Part shown: piece by piece, positions 1-7,017 of the stretch
Layout of the letters: the number at the start of each line of letters is the position of its first letter
Numbering within the stretch: the stretch's first letter is position 1
Source: Chloroflexota bacterium
Lineage (GTDB): Bacteria > Chloroflexota > Dehalococcoidia > UBA2979
Reading direction: 5' to 3'
DNA: 44,214 bases
NCBI GenBank assembly: GCA_027593235.1
Contig: JAQCIU010000027.1
Coordinates: forward strand, 1-44,214
Program-made: the position numbers and the translations under genes
The notes under the pieces: generated by a model
Databases searched by the model: none
Told to the model about the DNA's origin: nothing
The model's input: only the letters and a program-made list of their open reading frames with translations

Positions 1-1
1 G

Positions 2-607
2 CCGCTGGAGCCGGCGGCTCCGGATCCGACCGCGCCGACCGTGCCGGCGGCCACGCCGGAGGTGACCGGCGCGCCCGAAGCCACGCCGACGATCGAACAG
101 GCGCCACCGATCGCAGCGACGCTCGCGGCGGCGCTCCTGCCGGCGGCAAGCGTGGCGGCGGAGGATCGCGAAGCGGCGAGTCCGGCGAACGCCGCCAGAA
201 CCTCGGTGGTCTCGCTGCGCCCGACGCGGATTTCGGTCAACGGTGGCGCGAGCGCGATAGTGATGGCGCAGACACACCCACGGGTGATGGCGGAGCCGCT
301 GGCGAACCAGTTGGTGCCGGAGCTGGATGCGCCACTGCTGGTGGCAACGGGGGAGCCATTGGATTCGCTGACGACGCGGGAGCGCGAGGTGCTGACGCTG
401 ATCGCGCGCGGTTACTCGAACGCGGCGATCGCGGAGACGTTCGTGATTTCCGAGGGGACGGTCAAGACGCACGTGAAGCGCGTGCTGGCGAAGCTTGGGT
501 TGCGCGATCGAACGCAGGCGGCGATCTACGCATACGAGACGAACTTCGTGGCCGCGCGTGTGGTGGTCGACGTGCCGGAGCCGATCGTCCTGACGCGGGT
601 GCGCTAG
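2..607 (+). CDS. LuxR/NarL-family HTH regulator, 5'-truncated by the window, with long Ala/Pro/Thr linker
   Basis: C-terminal LTTREREVLTLIARGYSNAAIAETFVISEGTVKTHVKRVLAKLGLRDRTQAA is a classic LuxR HTH; frame is open back to position 2. Confidence 0.88.
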   Translation, partial: PLEPAAPDPTAPTVPAATPEVTGAPEATPTIEQAPPIAATLAAALLPAASVAAEDREAASPANAARTSVVSLRPTRISVNGGASAIVMAQTHPRVMAEPLANQLVPELDAPLLVATGEPLDSLTTREREVLTLIARGYSNAAIAETFVISEGTVKTHVKRVLAKLGLRDRTQAAIYAYETNFVAARVVVDVPEPIVLTRVR

Positions 608-647
608 CGCCGCTCGCGGTGGCTACGCGGGAGCGCCCACGCGGTGG

Positions 648-1457
648 CTAGCGCGGAAGCCCCCCACTAAACCAGTTGATCCGCGCCTCGAGTTGAGCGG
701 GGCCACCGGCGTGCATGACGGCGATCGCGTCGTCATCCGCTTCGGTCAGGGTCCGGGGGCCGCGCGGGCTAACGCCGTCGCCGATGCCCAGTTTCACGGT
801 GAGCTGGCGGGCGCGCCGGACGACAGCACCGATGCCCTCCGTGGCGTCGTGATGCTCGCCGATCGCGGGGATCAGCGCGTCAGGCAGACCCCAGATCGAG
901 GCGACCTCGATACCGAGCGTCTGGTGATCCGTGTCGAACTCCGCGCGTTCCGCTTCGATGTCGGTGGCGCCGGCCTTGATGCGGCGGAGCACGCGCTGGT
1001 AGTGAGGCGGCGAGGAGCAGGCGAGTGCGAGCCGCCCGACGTCGTGGAGCAGCCCGGCGCTGAAGGCGAGCGGGCGGATCGCGCGGACAGATTCGTCAGT
1101 GGAGGCGATGGCGTCCGCGAGGAGCGCGGTACCGACGAGATGACGCCAGAGTTCATCCTGATCGAGGCCGGACTTGGTGAGATCAGCGCCGGTGGATTGC
1201 TGCATGACGATGCCGAGGATGACGCGCTGTGTCTCCTCGAGGCCAAGGCGCACGATCGCGTCGGAGGCGCGAACGATGCGCTGTGCCGGCGCGTCCGCTG
1301 CGGAGTTGGCGAAGCGCAGCAGCGCGAGGGTGATCGCGGGATCGACTTCGACGACGGCGGCGATCTCCGTGATCGTGGCCTGCTTCGACATGATCAAAGA
1401 GACCGACTGGGAATGCGCCGGTGAGAGGACGGGAACACGAGCGGCGTTGATCGTCAT
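648..1457 (-). CDS. HDOD-domain protein
   Basis: DPAITLALLRFANS, AIVRLG, LWRH, AGLLHDVGRL, DH..LG...A..WGLP..I..HH motifs. Confidence 0.9.
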   Translation of the reverse strand: MTINAARVPVLSPAHSQSVSLIMSKQATITEIAAVVEVDPAITLALLRFANSAADAPAQRIVRASDAIVRLGLEETQRVILGIVMQQSTGADLTKSGLDQDELWRHLVGTALLADAIASTDESVRAIRPLAFSAGLLHDVGRLALACSSPPHYQRVLRRIKAGATDIEAERAEFDTDHQTLGIEVASIWGLPDALIPAIGEHHDATEGIGAVVRRARQLTVKLGIGDGVSPRGPRTLTEADDDAIAVMHAGGPAQLEARINWFSGGLPR

Positions 1458-1466
1458 ACGACGGGC

Positions 1467-1751
1467 CTATCTGTTGGGATCAGGAGGAGTTGGATCGAAC
1501 GCCGCAGGGTCGAGCCAGCGCCGATCGTTCCGCAATGCGGTTGCCGCGGAGAGGCTGTCCCCGACGCTCTTGATGCCGATCCGGAGCCAGTTCCCACAGC
1601 GATCGCAGAGGTGGAGCAACCGGAGGTTGCTGCGATGGGTGATGCGGGTGGCGCCCTGTTCCCCGGCAACCGGCTGTCCGGTGATCGACGAAAACTCGAA
1701 GGCAGCGCCCTGGAGCGGCCGTTCGCACACGTTGCACAGGAAGGTCTGCAT
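1467..1751 (-). CDS. Small C4 zinc-finger-like protein (CxxC-x39-CxxC), paralogue of 5000-5209
   Basis: CNVC...CDRC; GAGG RBS; ends 9 nt before the HDOD start; ungapped similarity to ORF 5000-5209. Confidence 0.8.
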   Translation of the reverse strand: MQTFLCNVCERPLQGAAFEFSSITGQPVAGEQGATRITHRSNLRLLHLCDRCGNWLRIGIKSVGDSLSAATALRNDRRWLDPAAFDPTPPDPNR

Positions 1752-1852
1752 CGCGGACCTCGATCATCGCGCGGGTTTGAGGCGTCCCACGGTTGGGGGT
1801 GCCGTTGGGTTCATCCTCGGAACATCTGGAGTCGATCAGCGGACCGGTTATA

Positions 1853-1880
1853 GAACGTTGAGCGAACGTTGATTGAACGG
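1853..1880. promoter_or_regulatory. Three 11-bp-phased GAACG(TTGA) direct repeats
   Basis: GAACGTTGA at 1853 and 1864, GAACGG at 1875, in a divergent intergenic region. Confidence 0.45.
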
Positions 1881-2009
1881 AAAGCAGAGCGAGCCGTCAG
1901 GATTCCACCGACCCCCAGTTGCTCAGGGCGAACACCGAAGCCGCCTTCACCGACCGAGCCGAGAATCGTGATATCGGGATGACGTGATGGTGAATGGGGA
2001 GGAGGGGCG

Positions 2010-2969
2010 ATGTCCGTTGACGAAGAATTTCGCGGCCTGCCGATCCCCTCCTCGATACTCCTCCCGCACCCGCCGGGGTTCGCGATCTTCGATCAGAACG
2101 GGGTCCCGCTGGACGTCGCGAAGCTGGATCCGCGCATCGATCCGATGGTGCTGATCCATCCGAAGGACTCCCCGGCGTTGCTCAAATGGGGCGAGCAGCA
2201 CGTCGCGGCGATCCTGACTAACGAGGCGCTCCCACTCTGGGAGCGCCAATACTTCCTGCACTACGGTCTGGTGTTGCAGGCGGGGCGGCTGTTCCGGTAC
2301 CGGGCGCGATTCGCGCGGGTGCAGCCGCTACTCGAGATCTTGCAACTGGCGGCAGCGTTCGTAACGCGCGAGCCATCCTCGTTCGCGGCTTCGCTCTCGA
2401 TGATGGTTGGACCCTACCGGACGGATTCGCACGCGGCGGGCACGGGGTTGTTGGCGGCGGCATTGCTGGTCGGCACGGCACCCGCAGGTTCGCTGGCGGC
2501 ACCGATCCTGGCGGCACCGATGCTGTCGGGGATGGTGGCGGATGTAGGGTTGGTGGAGAGCCATCGCGATTTGCTGAGTTTCGAGCGGGCGATGACGCCA
2601 CCGGAGCGGAACATCCTGCACGCGCACCCGCACTCCTCATCGCAGCTCGCGCGGCGGATTGGGCTGACGAGCGAGCGGATCCTCGAGGGGATCGAATCTC
2701 ACCACGAACGAATCGACGGCAGCGGCTACCCGCTGGGGCTGGGCGGCGACATGGTGCCGCGGCTGGCCCAGTGCGTCGCGCTGGCGGATACCTACCTGAC
2801 GCTGATCACGGAACGCCCTCGGACGGAGGCGCTGTCGCGGGACGACGCGCTGCAGGCGGTTTCGAACGAGGTGTTCTCGCGCGAGCTGGTTGAAGCACTG
2901 GCACGGCTGGTCCGCAGCAGCTACGACAGCGAGGCCGAACTGATGGCTGCGATGCAATCAGTTGCGTAG
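2010..2969 (+). CDS. HD-GYP domain protein with degenerate HD motif
   Basis: HP..S, HHERIDGSGYPLGL, VALAD; HD position reads VADVG; strong GGAGG RBS. Confidence 0.85.
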   Translation: MSVDEEFRGLPIPSSILLPHPPGFAIFDQNGVPLDVAKLDPRIDPMVLIHPKDSPALLKWGEQHVAAILTNEALPLWERQYFLHYGLVLQAGRLFRYRARFARVQPLLEILQLAAAFVTREPSSFAASLSMMVGPYRTDSHAAGTGLLAAALLVGTAPAGSLAAPILAAPMLSGMVADVGLVESHRDLLSFERAMTPPERNILHAHPHSSSQLARRIGLTSERILEGIESHHERIDGSGYPLGLGGDMVPRLAQCVALADTYLTLITERPRTEALSRDDALQAVSNEVFSRELVEALARLVRSSYDSEAELMAAMQSVA

Positions 2970-2973
2970 CCGA

Positions 2974-4476
2974 CTAGATCAGGCCCATGCGGGCAGCCGC
3001 TGAGACAGCGGCAATCTTCGAAGAGACCCCGAGCTTCTGATACGCGTTGTAGGCGTGACTCTGCACGGTCCGCCAACCGACGCCGAGTGCCGCACCAGCT
3101 TCGCGGTATGAGTTTCCATCACGGAACAGCCGCAGCACTTCCAGTTCGCGCGCCGTGAGGTCGGTATCCGCCTGGGCCGTCAGCGTGTCGATGCCGGGCA
3201 TGAGATCGAAGCGCCCGAGCGCGGCGGCGATACGGGCGCGGTGGGCGTGATGGGCGTAGGCAATGCCGAGCGCCCGGCAGCGGTCGGTGCCGGCACGGAC
3301 GAGATCGCTCCAGCGTTCCCGGGCGCCGTGCGGCGGGTCGAAGACGAGCAGTTCCGCACATTGGACACGGGCAAGTGCGGCCTCCACGGGGGAGTCGATC
3401 CGATCGGCGATGACGATCGCTTCCTCAAGCCAGCGGAGGCCGCGCGGGATGTCGCCGGCGCGGCTGGCGAGCAGGCCACGCACGCGGTGGGCGAGCACGG
3501 GCCACGCGGGCGCGCGGAGTACATGATCCGGCCACGCCCGATCGAACCAGGCGGACCATTCGGCAGCGGCTTCGCGGGTACCGCTGATGGCGACGGCTTC
3601 GGCGGCGATGAGCACCGCACCGATCGAGTAGAGCGCGAGCGGCCCGTCCGGAGGCGCGGGCTGGTAACCACTTGCGCCCTCGATGGCGTCGCAAAGCGCG
3701 CGTAGCGCGTCCGGGTTGCTGCGGAATGCGGGCGGCGCTTGCGAACGGAAGGCGACGATCTGCTCCACAGTGCGGCGCGCAGCGGGGACATCGCCGTCGA
3801 CGAGTCGCCAGTAGAAGTCGACCTGGAGCCGATACCAGTCGACGGGTTTGAGCCCGGCCTCGGTGGATGGGCCAGGCACCGCAGCGGTCGGGCGCTCGCC
3901 GCTGACGACGCGCATCTGTTGGTCAACGAGCTGGGAGAGGGTCAAGTGCCACTCCGGCGCGTCCGGCTGCATCGATGCCGACGCCGCAGCGAGGATGGCG
4001 CGGGCTCGCTGCGTCTCACCGATCGCGAGCAGCCATGGCGTCAGCAGACGCCGTTCGACCAACTTCGTTCCCGACGGGGCGCACGGCGGGGTCGAGCGGA
4101 GGAGCGTGTCGATCTCCTCGAGGGTGACAGTGGCAAGACCATGGCAGCGCGCGACGGTTTCTCGCAACACCTGGTCACGACAGTCGACAGGGGTGGACAT
4201 GCCTCCGACGACGGCGCGGGCCTCGGCGAGCGTGCGAAGCGCTCTGGCGGGATCAAGCGCCAACTCGAAGCCGGAGCGGATGCGGAGGGCGCGAGCGCGA
4301 TCGAGATCGGGGGAGCCGGCGCGCTCTGGTGCGATGATGCTGACGCCGACCGGGAAGCGCGGGAACCGCGTCTGGAGCTCCGCGAGCTGGGCATGAATCA
4401 CCCGCGCGACACCGCCGTCCCGACTGGACGACCGGTGTAGGGTCGCGCCATCGCGTGCCGACCGGTTCTCACTCAC
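2974..4476 (-). CDS. Large helical-domain LuxR-family regulator (start uncertain)
   Basis: C-terminal LTARELEVLRLFRDGNSYREAGAALGVGWRTVQSHAYNAYQKLGV; preceding Ala/Arg-rich helical region. Confidence 0.82.
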   Translation of the reverse strand: MSENRSARDGATLHRSSSRDGGVARVIHAQLAELQTRFPRFPVGVSIIAPERAGSPDLDRARALRIRSGFELALDPARALRTLAEARAVVGGMSTPVDCRDQVLRETVARCHGLATVTLEEIDTLLRSTPPCAPSGTKLVERRLLTPWLLAIGETQRARAILAAASASMQPDAPEWHLTLSQLVDQQMRVVSGERPTAAVPGPSTEAGLKPVDWYRLQVDFYWRLVDGDVPAARRTVEQIVAFRSQAPPAFRSNPDALRALCDAIEGASGYQPAPPDGPLALYSIGAVLIAAEAVAISGTREAAAEWSAWFDRAWPDHVLRAPAWPVLAHRVRGLLASRAGDIPRGLRWLEEAIVIADRIDSPVEAALARVQCAELLVFDPPHGARERWSDLVRAGTDRCRALGIAYAHHAHRARIAAALGRFDLMPGIDTLTAQADTDLTARELEVLRLFRDGNSYREAGAALGVGWRTVQSHAYNAYQKLGVSSKIAAVSAAARMGLI

Positions 4477-4550
4477 AACGGCGGGGCCTTCCGCGATCCC
4501 TGCGGTTCTCTACCTATCGAGGGTCCTCGGAAATCGATCGCCCGCACTAT

Positions 4551-4589
4551 TGCGTTGACACTTATATCAATGCTTAAACTGTCAACGCA
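4551..4589. promoter_or_regulatory. Perfect 10-bp inverted repeat TGCGTTGACA-N19-TGTCAACGCA (candidate operator)
   Basis: Read directly; AT-rich spacer; lies between the divergent LuxR and zinc-finger/wHTH genes. Confidence 0.55.
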
Positions 4590-4999
4590 GCGACAGATTC
4601 AGGTGGTGTCTCCTTCAATGTTTACTGGGCTTTTTGACCGAACGAGATCGGGGCGTGATCGAGCCGGTGATCGGTTCGTGATCGGTTGTCCGACAAGCGT
4701 GAGCGAATGTTGACATTCACCGCGCGCGTACCCCTCAAGGGTCGTTCCGCAACGGGCCGAGATGTGGGACGACGGGCCGCGGTGAGTTTCTGACGAGGCA
4801 CGCGGGCTTCTGAAGAGTCACTGACGAGAGCGTCGAACTCAGTCACGTGACGCAAGAGAGATGGCTCAGCGATTCCTACGATAGTGACGTCGGTGGTGGC
4901 TTCCGGTTCCGATCGGGGCGATGGAAGGCACGCTGGCGCGGCGGGGCGCAGCGGTTGGGATGGCGGCGAGTCAATCGCGCGCCAGAACTGGGGTCCGCA

Positions 5000-5209
5000 A
5001 TGCCAGCGATTCTCTGTGACCTCTGTCGTCAGGAGCTGCATGGCGCCGCGACGGAGATACGTCTTGCCCGCGGGCTCGCCGGGACGAATGCTGCCGGCAA
5101 GCCGTTCCTGGTGCCCCGTGACGATGACTCTCCGCAGTTCCTCTGCACCCGCTGTACCGCGTGGGTAACGACGGCGATCGATCAGCTTCGAGACTCCTTT
5201 GCCTCCTAA
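5000..5209 (+). CDS. Small C4 zinc-finger-like protein (69 aa), paralogue of 1467-1751
   Basis: MPAILCDLC...LCTRCTAW; start placed at ATG 5000 by alignment with the paralogue and shared leader sequence. Confidence 0.8.
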   Translation: MPAILCDLCRQELHGAATEIRLARGLAGTNAAGKPFLVPRDDDSPQFLCTRCTAWVTTAIDQLRDSFAS

Positions 5210-5954
5210 CCGCGTGACCTGGAGCAGCGACGAGCGGCCGGGCGACAGCCACGGGCCGGTGCCAGAACGTCCTCGGTTGGCGCTACTGGAGGCACCAACC
5301 GACGGCGCCGCGGACGATGTCCGCCTCGCCCCAAACGCCAGGCGCGCCTGGGTGGGTGGCCGCGAACTCGAACTCACAACGCAGCTCTTCGACCTGTTGT
5401 CCTTCTTCCTTGCCCACCGCGGCGAGGCGGTCAGCTTTGAGGTGCTGGCCTCCGAGGTCTGGGCGTATCCGCACGGCGCGGGCGATCACCACTTCCTCCA
5501 TACGGCGGTCTACCGGCTGCGTCGGATTTTGAACGGCGCCGGCATCGACGACCTGGTCGATGGGATCCGGGGCTACGGCTATCGGATCAGCGCTGGGCCG
5601 CCGATCAAGGAGGAGCCCGCCGTCCTCGCGACGCGGGCGATCGGCGTGTTCGACCCTCGCGATGCGGATCTGCCGCTCTCGATCGTCAACGACGCAGCCG
5701 TCGGGCTGACCGGCTACAGCATGGAAGCGCTGACGCGCATGCCGCATATCGTGGACCGCCTCTGGCCACCGGAGGCGCGATTGGTGATCAATGCGGTAGT
5801 CGATGACGCGGTGCGTACCGGGGCCGCCGACGCAGCGGGATTGTCACTGCGACGGGCGGATGGATCCACGGTGTTGGTGGATATCGCAATCACGCGGCTG
5901 GGAGCGTCCGCCGCGCCATTGTGCTTAGGTGAGGCAACGCCGCTCGATCGCTAG
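5199..5954 (+). CDS. OmpR/PhoB-type winged-helix protein with C-terminal PAS-like domain, no receiver domain
   Basis: LELTTQLFDLLSFF...VSFEVL..EVW...AVYRLRRIL...IRGYGYR, then VNDAAVGLTGYS..L and RRADGSTVLVDI; start may be GTG 5214. Confidence 0.85.
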   Translation: MPPNRVTWSSDERPGDSHGPVPERPRLALLEAPTDGAADDVRLAPNARRAWVGGRELELTTQLFDLLSFFLAHRGEAVSFEVLASEVWAYPHGAGDHHFLHTAVYRLRRILNGAGIDDLVDGIRGYGYRISAGPPIKEEPAVLATRAIGVFDPRDADLPLSIVNDAAVGLTGYSMEALTRMPHIVDRLWPPEARLVINAVVDDAVRTGAADAAGLSLRRADGSTVLVDIAITRLGASAAPLCLGEATPLDR

Positions 5955-6015
5955 GCTGAGATGGCTGATGGTCCAGACGATCGCGGGTGCGCACCCGCTC
6001 GGGAGTGAAGCAACG

Positions 6016-6201
6016 ATGGACTCACAACGAACTGCCAAGGCGAAGCACGTCGATCTGACTTGCCCTCGCTGTCGTGACTCCCTGAAGCAGCCGGATGGCG
6101 ATCCGGCAAGCGCGCACACCATGGGGAGTGGCTGTGTCGTCTACCGGGAGCGTCGAGCGGCAGCGACCGGGACGCCGACCAGCACCGCGAACGGCGACTA
6201 A
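6016..6201 (+). CDS. Small hypothetical protein with CPRC...H...C motif
   Basis: GGGAG RBS at 6001-6005, ATG 6016, possible metal ligands; co-oriented with upstream genes. Confidence 0.45.
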   Translation: MDSQRTAKAKHVDLTCPRCRDSLKQPDGDPASAHTMGSGCVVYRERRAAATGTPTSTANGD

Positions 6202-6370
6202 CCGCCGTCCGCGCACCGGTCAGGGGCGCAACGCATCCCGAGGGCCGGCCCGGCCGCGGGAGCCGTCGCGTCGAATGGCGGTCGTGCGTAGCTCCACCAC
6301 AAGCCCCCGAACCCCGCAGTTCCGCCCAGCGATCACGGGGCTCCACTGACGCGGCGCACAGTCGCGCCGC

Positions 6371-6379
6371 TGCTACGAT
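6371..6379 (+). promoter_or_regulatory. Extended -10 element (TGcTACGAT), possibly for tRNA-Arg
   Basis: TGn plus TACGAT about 80 nt upstream of the tRNA. Confidence 0.35.
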
Positions 6380-6461
6380 ATGGCGGCGCTCGAGGGCACC
6401 GACGGGCCGCTCTCGCCGTTGCCGGCGAGCCGTTCCTCGTCAGCCCCGCGCGTCGTCGCAC

Positions 6462-6537
6462 GCCCCCGTAGCTCAGGGGATAGAGCAGCGGACTTCTAAT
6501 CCGCCGGTCGGAGGTTCAAATCCTTCCGGGGGCGCCA
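6462..6537 (+). tRNA. tRNA-Arg (anticodon UCU)
   Basis: Acceptor GCCCCCG/CGGGGGC, D arm GCTC/GAGC, anticodon arm GCGGA-CTTCTAA-TCCGC, T arm GGAGG-TTCAAAT-CCTTC, encoded CCA; 76 nt. Confidence 0.97.
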
Positions 6538-6642
6538 CGATCCCTTTCCGACGAGACGATTCGGGGCGATCACGACGGCGCTCCGGCGGAGCACCATGAC
6601 GGGGCGCCGCGAATGTCGTGCCGCAGTGCGGAGAGGAATGCA

Positions 6643-7017
6643 ATGGCCAACGTGAGCGTGCGCTACATCGTCCACGATGTGGACGCGGCGATTCCGTTCT
6701 ATGTGGAGCAACTCGGGTTCGAACTGGTGATGCACCCGGCACCGGGGTTCGCGAGCCTGTCGTACGGCGCGCTCCGCCTGCTGCTGAACCGGCCGGGGGC
6801 CGGCGGCGCTGGTCAGGCGATGCCGGATGGCCGCGAGCCCGCGCCAGGTGGCTGGAACCGCGTGCAGATCGAGGTTGGCGACCTGGATGAGGTGGTCGCG
6901 AGGCTGACCGAGGCGGGCACGAGCTTTCGCAATGAGATCGTCACCGGGAACGGCGGCAAGCAGATCCTGGTCGACGATCCGTCGGGGAACCCAATCGAGC
7001 TGTTTCAACCGTTCTGA
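6643..7017 (+). CDS. VOC/glyoxalase-bleomycin resistance family protein
   Basis: VRYIVHDVDAAIPFY...LGF; DDPSGNPIELF; GAGAGG RBS. Confidence 0.9.
   Translation: MANVSVRYIVHDVDAAIPFYVEQLGFELVMHPAPGFASLSYGALRLLLNRPGAGGAGQAMPDGREPAPGGWNRVQIEVGDLDEVVARLTEAGTSFRNEIVTGNGGKQILVDDPSGNPIELFQPF

Follow-up and report, generated by a model that had tools for sequence, protein, structure and literature searches.

The microproteins described here, A and B, are encoded by two paralogous genes on contig JAQCIU010000027.1 of a Chloroflexota bacterium (assembly GCA_027593235.1), within a stretch of 44,214 nucleotides (nt) that was analysed as a whole and is referred to as the window. A/B-type microproteins probably act in motility signalling, as small binding partners. 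The more specific reading, i.e. that they are pairing, zinc-stabilised protein-binding modules in motility and cyclic di-GMP (c-di-GMP) signalling, with A and B docking together on the stand-alone HDOD protein encoded next to A, has about an even chance of being correct. In these Chloroflexota, the family to which A and B belong is one component of the set of genes accompanying flagellar motility and signalling of the c-di-GMP type.

A and B are conserved paralogous genes

BLASTP aligns A and B without gaps at 20 identities over 69 positions (36.2 bits, E 1e-9 for this single comparison), with both open reading frames (ORFs) at the positions listed in Table 1. An earlier, sequence-only reading of the window had claimed just such a gapless alignment with 20 identities, and the motif that it wrote out agrees with the BLASTP alignment. 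Nine database orthologues of A (70–99% identity, 94–99 amino acids (aa)) and six of B (75–90% identity, most called at 69 aa) were found, and in 16 A/B-type sequences the residues M1, C6, C9, L13, G15, A17, E19, G25, G33, R40, C49, C52 and W55 are unchanging. A has in addition a C-terminal tail of its own (ALRNDxRWxDP). Pairwise ratios of nonsynonymous to synonymous substitution rates (dN/dS) among three genomes of the genus are 0.17–0.35 for A and 0.05–0.11 for B, values that are rough because dS is ~ 1–2, and the GC content by codon position (0.61/0.54/0.78 for A and 0.66/0.54/0.70 for B) follows the same pattern as in neighbouring genes. Overlapping alternative frames do not have a gene-like GC pattern, except for the antisense frame 1174–1872. 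On this sequence evidence, A and B are real, conserved paralogous genes under purifying selection.

The window has a GC content of 68%, and DNA of this kind yields many long spurious ORFs, several of which overlap A and B. In principle, the two ORFs or their likeness could therefore be chance products of GC-rich DNA from which no protein is made, but this has next to no probability in view of the orthologues with low dN/dS, the cysteines conserved across 43 diverse members and the confident structural model described below (mean score of 91). Moreover, each of the 89 family profile matches has a start codon at the first positions of the profile, and only 2 of the 89 look damaged.

In the mechanical ORF list the frame of B runs from 4847 to 5209 (+), with a GTG start at 4847 and a length of 120 aa, the last 69 codons of which are B. 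Conservation among the B orthologues starts at the M of MPAILCD (ATG 5000), and the N-terminal extensions of two database entries are mutually unrelated. Because conservation begins at ATG 5000, the GTG 4847 start is an artefact of the ORF listing, which bears out the suspicion of the sequence-only reading that a too-early start had hidden B.

A narrow, lineage-restricted family

The family profile was built in steps, from 16 close A/B sequences to a 43-row alignment of diverse members. Searches of the window's own genome with single proteins recovered only the reciprocal pair A/B, the other copies requiring the 43-row profile. Against 1.84 billion cluster representatives, the 16-sequence profile gave 46 matches at E ≤ 1e-3 (20 at E ≤ 1e-10), 42 of which are proteins of 54–179 aa; the other 4 are long and were matched via repeated short stretches rather than through a domain like the N-terminal ZAD. 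Family members have 55–120 residues, apart from one 179-residue fusion to PilZ.

Two panels were searched: 99 genomes of the window's taxonomic family (21 genera; 43-row profile) and 61 genomes of a second Dehalococcoidia family. The microprotein family is present in 46 of the former, spread over 13 genera, and in 3 of the latter. With the 43-row profile, a class-wide sample of 401 genomes gave 8 carriers among 26 genomes of the window's family, 1 among 25 of the second family and 0 among the 350 elsewhere. Up to 5 copies occur per genome; in that of the window, A and B are joined by a further type on contig 66 and by two copies in tandem on contig 32. The homologues that the sequence-only reading had expected in this and related genomes were thus found.

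No common family above cut-off emerged from a Pfam and NCBIfam scan of 43 members, bar PilZ in the fusion. The best Pfam match of A is PLATZ (E 0.07) and those of B are zf-AD (E 0.0023) and PHD (E 0.011), none of which reaches the cut-off. A profile search of the PDB returned only C2H2 arrays at E 0.001 without a significant stretch, and 29 of 30 ESM Atlas matches were unnamed clusters, the remaining one being a ZZ-finger cluster at 0.91, so that no usable lead was obtained. Literature searches of Creative Commons papers in PMC and of bioRxiv turned up no small zinc-finger partner of HDOD and no PilZ-fused zinc-finger microprotein. The earlier suggestion of a possibly undescribed family holds for this pair of paralogues, for which no Pfam, NCBIfam or PDB match exists. 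Going by these profile searches, A and B belong to a narrow, lineage-restricted C4 microprotein family whose members all come from two taxonomic families within a single class of the Chloroflexota.

Co-occurrence with flagella and HDOD proteins

Flagellin (PF00669) was found in 47 of the 99 genomes and a stand-alone HDOD protein like that of the window (E ≤ 1e-40) in 40, and the genera (13 of the 21) that have flagellin and those that have such HDOD proteins are identical to those with the microprotein family. In cross-counts tallied by hand from the search tables, 43 genomes have both the family and flagellin, 3 only the family, 4 only flagellin (G061, G068, G080 and G106) and 49 neither; for the family and HDOD the corresponding numbers are 38, 8, 2 (HDOD only) and 51. 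The pattern is also seen inside single genera: G102, alone among 5 genomes, has any of the family, flagellin and HDOD, and it has all three, and in another genus G053, alone among 5, lacks every one of them. In the 61 genomes of the second taxonomic family, flagellin occurs in 2 and the microprotein in 3, the latter comprising both of the 2 flagellated genomes and 1 of the 59 others (probability of this overlap by chance 3/1830, by hand count).

The A-B-HDOD trio

Genomic contexts were surveyed by fetching ~ 8 kb around every profile match, the 89 matches representing 71 sites in 46 genomes. In a quick maximum-likelihood tree (84 rows by 76 columns, with many forks without resolution; support given as SH-like approximate likelihood ratio test, SH-aLRT), the A-type genes and the B-type genes, four of each, form separate clades with support of 98 and 100, respectively, and the two clades lie within the clade (97) of the type found behind the thymidylate kinase gene (tmk). 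The A and B clades comprise the identical 4 genomes of 2 genera, i.e. the window's genome, G001 and G003 of the same genus and G112 of another. An HDOD gene follows A in all four, with spacings of 9, -4, -4 and -13 nt; the 9 nt in the window, which separate the stop of A from the start (ATG 1457) of a gene whose product has a complete HDOD domain, are as the sequence-only reading had stated. Among the 99 genomes, the closest relatives of this HDOD protein (71, 65 and 49% identity) are exactly those of the three other genomes with A and B, and no other HDOD protein exceeds 46% identity to it. As far as these comparisons go, A, B and one HDOD subtype travel together, and the same linkage on further contigs is suggested by several database A- or B-type proteins whose longest contig is equal in length to that of a close HDOD relative (693,438; 102,685; 75,872; 22,057; 10,814 and 2,768). 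A as a general HDOD partner was considered and ruled out, since 8 of the 9 HDOD genes of the window's genome have no A-type neighbour.

In the HDOD protein, H106, H138, D139, H178, H202 and H203 are invariant or nearly so among 42 relatives, by which it retains the five-His-plus-Asp site that, according to an excerpt of PMC12075610, holds two iron ions in a Geobacter HDOD structure.

Tandem pairs and fusions

Besides the trio, 18 of the 71 sites hold tandem pairs, which always consist of one type-1 member (clade support 99) and one type-2 member (clades 87–93), with a stop/start overlap of 1 or 4 nt in at least 12 of the 18. In G065 the pair is fused to a 160-aa protein (L077:3746-4225 (+); G065:C8), the halves of which are 45–51% and 67–68% identical to the separate genes of three relatives. 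An AlphaFold2 model of this fusion with a 7-row alignment (pLDDT 61, pTM 0.53) is uninformative on the packing of the halves; larger alignments, in which both subfamilies fell on the second half, were set aside. Type-1 cores are acidic (median isoelectric point (pI) 5.0) and type-2 cores neutral; for residues 1–66 of B and A the pI is 5.3 (acidic) and 8.1 (mildly basic), respectively. Tandem coupling together with fusion would be the usual signature of two chains in one complex.

The tandem pair of the window's genome (G000:C32, 79104-79337 (-) plus a 79-aa gene 23 nt upstream; L060) is located ~ 2.7 kb downstream of the only flagellin gene of this genome (C32:82039-82449), and genes for a flavin reductase and for a peptidoglycan hydrolase (SLT + M23) come after it.

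Predicted fold and putative metal site

AlphaFold2 with the 43-row alignment gave a model with a mean predicted local distance difference test (pLDDT) score of 91.2 and a predicted template modelling (pTM) score of 0.66. In this model C6 and C9 lie in an N-terminal loop, followed by strands at residues 17–29 and 35–49 and a helix at 50–75, with C49 closing strand 2 and C52 in the first helix turn. C6 is invariant in 43 diverse members and the other three cysteines are at least 90% conserved, the first motif reading CDxCxxP and the second often CxxCG (family consensus LCxxCGxW). Because a knuckle CxxC precedes the hairpin and a second CxxC opens the helix, the arrangement is of the treble-clef type, i.e. 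a C4 metal site predicted to staple a long beta-hairpin to a long C-terminal helix. A zinc ribbon is ruled out in the model, where the second cysteine pair sits at the strand-helix junction and not on the hairpin knuckle.

Foldseek returned no match to the model at E ≤ 1e-3 and an exhaustive structural scan of 48,161 chains none at Z ≥ 5, so that, together with the PDB profile search, the check for a well-characterised family came out as the sequence-only reading had anticipated. The top matches are the Lsr2 N-domain (Z 4.5), ZAD (Z 4.1, 3.6, 3.6 and 3.1) and GATA fingers (Z 3.3), and no membership of a fold class is claimed from them because they are too weak. The best of these structural neighbours (Lsr2 N-domain and ZAD) are hairpin-plus-helix dimerisation modules, which the model would thus resemble in shape without belonging to them.

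Complex prediction for HDOD + B with A as partner gave scores of 0.73, 0.74 and 0.73, compared to 0.00 for both partner-replaced controls. With the HDOD chain replaced, however, the score was still 0.69, so that it is not specific to the HDOD chain (the kept chain may supply it), and the prediction is not counted for or against any binding.

Genomic contexts

Neighbouring genes were called with a simple codon-score caller and clustered by BLAST, after which one representative per cluster was run through Pfam. The resulting contexts are summarised in Table 2.

Table 2 Contexts of the family members at the surveyed sites
Group	Sites	Context
tmk group	13	behind AAA-PTPase-R3H and thymidylate kinase genes, facing thiolase
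Cysteine-cluster group	12	flanked by rhodanese or JAB on one side and CysM-like/ThiS on the other; third pair of cysteines in the members
Tandem pairs	18	flagellin upstream, at a distance of one or two genes, in 7; 5 facing CheR-CheB; 2–3 behind a 900-aa chemoreceptor; 4 behind DEAD helicase
A type	4	HDOD gene immediately downstream
B type	4	winged helix-turn-helix (wHTH) gene downstream in one genus only; in G112 convergent on HDOD gene
Contig-66 type	4	3 divergent from wHTH gene
SDR group	4	before SDR gene
Others	12	including REC-GGDEF > micro (4-nt gap), GGDEF-EAL < / micro > HDOD, EAL-HDOD > micro, PilZ fusion

A signalling or motility gene is the immediate neighbour of, or fused to, the microprotein gene at 21 of the 71 sites, and lies within two genes at 25. 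For genes of the c-di-GMP type, adjacency or fusion was found at 9 sites in five separate lineages, the partners being HDOD, HD-GYP-type (HD_5), REC-GGDEF, GGDEF-EAL, EAL-HDOD and the PilZ fusion; the window's genome (3.4 Mb) has 11 GGDEF and 9 HDOD genes. The one carrier inspected from the second taxonomic family (G412) has both of its copies inside two-component signalling operons, namely REC + 5 PAS > micro and REC-GerE > GerE > micro > CHASE-PAS histidine kinase. The modular use with different signalling partners that the sequence-only reading had proposed is therefore seen with HDOD, GGDEF-EAL, REC-GGDEF, EAL-HDOD, REC-PAS, CHASE kinase, chemoreceptor/CheR/CheB, flagellin and PilZ, but with only 21 of 71 sites it does not hold as a general rule. 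Neither does the partnership of B with the wHTH gene, since the B-type gene of G112 does not precede such a gene but is convergent with the HDOD gene, the two being 16 nt apart.

The PilZ fusion (P0031, 179 aa; database name 'PilZ domain-containing protein [Dehalococcoidia bacterium]') has a PilZ domain behind the microprotein domain (Pfam E 3.9e-8, NCBIfam TIGR02266 E 4.6e-8). Its PilZ motifs RxxxR and NxSxxG were identified by visual inspection of the alignment; neither A nor B has a PilZ domain.

Members of the cysteine-cluster subfamily carry their third cysteine pair in DPCPxCEV and lie on the opposite strand to the rhodanese/JAB and CysM-like/ThiS genes in 12 genomes (~ 4001–4300 in each of L061, L064, L070, L071, L074, L111, L112, L117, L119, L120, L122 and L123). 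The two copies that look damaged are both of the tmk type: L106:4010-4249 (-) (G011:C4) changes frame after about residue 45, with profile matches in two frames, and L102:4001-4168 (+) (G055:C11) stops at 55 aa with an incomplete second cysteine pair.

Contexts that are very diverse and yet conserved per subfamily are what would be expected of expanded local regulators, and the family could thus consist of small dimeric zinc-finger transcription factors, each regulating adjacent genes (the HDOD or wHTH operon in the window; genes of cysteine synthesis, flagellin or chemotaxis at other sites) and reading DNA by its helix or hairpin. The tmk, cysteine-synthesis, SDR and DEAD-helicase contexts are explained at least as well in this way, members in the cysteine cluster run against the transcription of both flanking genes, there is a weak GATA finger match (Z 3.3, root-mean-square deviation (rmsd) 2.1 Å over 37 residues), and tandem or fused pairs would supply the two half-sites of a dimeric binder. 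On the other hand, the charge of the cores is near-neutral or acidic (median pI 5.0–8.1 by subgroup, for residues 1–66), which weakens this explanation, no basic patch is conserved beyond R36 and R40, the upstream regions of A and B have no common operator across genomes, and the tight HDOD coupling and the PilZ fusion fit a protein partner at least as well. A role as transcription factors is the main alternative to protein binding, albeit a rather unlikely one.

Another possibility is a four-Cys redox- or metal-sensing switch (zinc-thiolate, of the RsrA/Hsp33 kind) or a metal chaperone that reports to neighbouring pathways. It would suit the 12 sites in the rhodanese / JAB / CysM / ThiS sulfur-carrier cluster, where members have the third cysteine pair (CPxCE), as well as other members that adjoin a thioredoxin-reductase-like Pyr_redox_2 gene or flavin reductases, and the full five-His-plus-Asp metal site (in the layout given in an excerpt of PMC12075610) of the partner HDOD protein. 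Two CxxC at knuckle and helix start are, however, the ordinary structural zinc site of treble clefs, most contexts (flagellin, chemoreceptor, tmk, DEAD helicase and HDOD) have no redox theme, and the match with flagellin presence would be left unexplained, which makes such a switch or chaperone improbable.

Proposed mode of action

For the reading in which the microproteins bind proteins, the C4 fold would be a small zinc-stabilised module that works as a homodimer, or as a heterodimer of two paralogues, and docks onto signalling or motility proteins. A, which would be made together with the HDOD protein, would form a small complex with it and B, and this complex would act within a c-di-GMP-type module that also comprises the degenerate HD-GYP protein, the LuxR-type regulators and the wHTH-PAS regulator of the window. 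The PilZ fusion fits this binding-module view, because it places the microprotein domain where two-domain PilZ receptors have their target-binding domain.

Several observations weigh against this reading. At 50 of the 71 sites no signalling or motility gene is adjacent, the best-scoring subgroup follows tmk and faces thiolase (13 sites) and another lies in the cysteine cluster (12 sites), contexts so varied that they fit local transcription factors, too. Three genomes (G060, G063 and G064) have the family without a flagellin match, and the 99 genomes are not 99 independent trials, because the pattern is mostly one split among genera; moreover, many lifestyle genes would show the same flagella-linked pattern. 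Of the 9 HDOD genes in the window's genome, 8 have no neighbour of the A type. The fold matches are weak throughout, and zinc in the C4 site of A and B is assumed: according to an excerpt of PMC11241148, such motifs can lack a metal or carry a different one, zinc was absent from 5 of the 14 C(P)XCG proteins purified from Haloferax, and AlphaFold2 did not distinguish these from the others.

A further-reaching version of the binding-module reading holds that the family is a new motility regulator, i.e. a zinc-stapled pairing module that links c-di-GMP-type proteins (HDOD, HD-GYP, GGDEF/EAL and PilZ) to the flagellar or chemotaxis machinery and is possibly nucleotide-sensing, for which a conserved R-x3-R pair (strand 2) and a conserved Glu (strand 1) would be used. 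This version seems distinctly unlikely as matters stand.

Sequence upstream of A and B

The sequence-only reading had also pointed to a likeness of the 29 nt before the start codons of A and B. The match of 20/29 is real and rare in this genome: among 151,525 pairs of 29-nt upstream stretches (called genes, fetched loci) a fraction of 6.4e-4 reaches at least 20/29, and only 5 of the 88,370 29-mers in the window match the stretch upstream of A as well as that of B does. It is not kept in the other carriers of A and B, where the same comparison gives 14/29 (G003), 12/29 (G001) and 8/29 (G112), and a shared regulatory element before A and B is therefore ruled out. As judged from these alignments, the likeness would be a local peculiarity combined with the common GAGG/GGGG ribosome-binding stretch. 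Most family starts are preceded by purine-rich stretches, and ATCGAGGTC is conserved before the A genes of G003 and G001.

Two other elements were observed here. GTTCCGAGGATGAAC (minus-strand reading; window 1809-1823, ~ 60–70 nt before the ATG of A) is identical in G003 and matches at 12 of 15 positions in G001, and is a candidate promoter or operator piece of the divergent region (258 nt) between A and the HD-GYP-type gene. A perfect 9-bp inverted repeat, GCGTTGACA-N19-TGTCAACGC, is found at 4552-4588, where the 523 nt that separate B from the LuxR-type gene are locally AT-rich; its core pattern occurs once in the window and 0 times in 100 shuffles, and is absent at the orthologous loci of G001 and G003. 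A promoter and terminator scan gave no result.

Neighbouring genes in the window

Features of the A/B region are listed in Table 1.

Table 1 Positions of the microprotein genes, their upstream stretches and the neighbouring genes in the window
Feature	Position	Strand	Details
GerE-type regulator, 3' part of gene	2..607	+	Pfam GerE E 1.2e-19; convergent on HDOD gene
Stand-alone HDOD protein	648..1457	-	269 aa; Pfam HDOD E 3.4e-41; ATG 9 nt after stop of A
Microprotein A	1467..1751	-	94 aa; CxxC at residues 6-9 and 49-52
29 nt before ATG of A	1752-1780	-	20/29 match to upstream stretch of B
GAGG, Shine-Dalgarno-like	1758..1761	-	7-10 nt before ATG of A, read from sequence
HD-GYP-type protein (HD_5)	2010..2969	+	319 aa; Pfam HD_5 E 4.9e-15; divergent from A
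LuxR/GerE-family regulator	2974..4476	-	500 aa; GerE E 1.1e-10 at residues 440-493; divergent from B
29 nt before ATG of B	4971-4999	+	20/29 match to upstream stretch of A
GGGG, Shine-Dalgarno-like	4990..4993	+	7-10 nt before ATG of B, read from sequence
Microprotein B	5000..5209	+	69 aa; CxxC at residues 6-9 and 49-52
Winged-helix (Trans_reg_C) regulator	5199..5954	+	Pfam E 8.1e-15; start TTG 5199 or GTG 5214

Depending on the start codon of the winged-helix gene, the stop of B overlaps it by 11 nt (TTG 5199) or lies 4 nt before it (in-frame GTG 5214). Of the claim that B abuts or overlaps a wHTH-PAS gene, the position and the winged helix are clear, but the PAS half is only weakly matched (PAS_9 E 0.086; in the G003 orthologue PAS_4 E 3.2e-4, below cut-off). 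The HD-GYP-type protein keeps HHExxDGxGYP, has AD at the position of the HD dyad and is matched from profile position 44 of 170; it may be non-catalytic and sensor-like, to judge from these residues. The LuxR/GerE-family regulator occupies an equivalent position in G001 and G003. The truncated gene at the window's edge (2..607) has an orthologue in G003 (L101) that encodes a 542-aa Sensor + GerE protein (Sensor E 2e-28, GerE E 1.5e-18). A tRNA gene (6462-6534 (+), Rfam 69.9 bits) lies just 3' of the wHTH-PAS gene; besides this tRNA, an Rfam scan over window positions 1-7000 at E ≤ 1 gave two sub-threshold chance matches and no riboswitch.

Significance

Among bacterial signalling domains that lack a known mechanism, HDOD is, to our knowledge, one of the commonest, and a pair of small candidate partners, co-inherited and probably co-translated, makes that mechanism concretely testable. 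If the microproteins were indeed a new motility regulator, A-B would be the first defined partner, and hence the first mechanism, for a stand-alone HDOD protein. Furthermore, zinc-finger microproteins, which have mainly been studied in haloarchaea, have a bacterial counterpart that tracks flagellar motility, and standard ORF calling partly hides the genes for such microproteins. The practical weight would be modest today, because the carriers are uncultured and the evidence is purely computational so far.

Comparison with known systems

ZAD (zf-AD), the homodimerisation module of arthropod C2H2 factors, has the same C4 site, with an N-terminal CxxC and another CxxC at the start of a long helix. 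B matches its profile (PF07776) at 18.6 bits, compared to a cut-off of 28 (E 0.0023), A does not match, and only 1 of 43 members does so at E ≤ 0.01. Unlike ZAD, the A/B family is bacterial and stand-alone, is not the N-domain of C2H2 arrays, and has a much longer hairpin. The N-terminal dimerisation domain of Lsr2 (Mycobacterium tuberculosis, PDB 4e1p/4e1r) likewise consists of a hairpin and then a helix (Z 4.5, rmsd 4.0 Å over 52 residues), but this is a weak match with 10% identity and no metal site, and Lsr2 has a separate DNA-binding domain.

In two-domain PilZ receptors the N-domain contacts the target. Like receptors of the YcgR / MotI kind, P0031 places its microprotein domain directly before PilZ, whereas its N-domain is a C4 finger that is unrelated to YcgR-N/PilZN; it is one fusion among 46 clusters.

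A further parallel is formed by the one-domain zinc-finger mu-proteins of Haloferax volcanii, deletions of which affect swarming and biofilm formation (PMC6562870, PMC10716476 and PMC11241148, each as excerpted). Like the C(P)XCG mu-proteins HVO_2753 and HVO_0758, as far as excerpts of these papers describe them, the A/B family is stand-alone, with ~ 60–100 residues, two cysteine pairs and many paralogues. It differs from the archaeal proteins in being bacterial and in having a long conserved hairpin and helix, coupled pairs, a PilZ fusion and an HDOD partner. By description it is also set apart from the Haloferax type with two C(P)XCG motifs in at most 70 residues, since the first motif is CDxC and A and B have 94 and 69 aa. 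Thus, a one-domain zinc-finger microprotein that affects motility is known from Haloferax, and what is new is the bacterial family, its paired and fused forms, and the links to HDOD and PilZ.

The HDOD protein can be compared with SadB of Pseudomonas aeruginosa (YbaK-like + HDOD), which according to an excerpt of PMC12075610 is an adaptor for AmrZ proteolysis through protein contacts rather than through catalysis or a ligand in its pocket. Unlike in the trio of the window, the second domain of SadB is covalently attached and unrelated, and its pocket is described there as being without three metal-binding histidines, whereas the HDOD protein next to A keeps all five His and the Asp.

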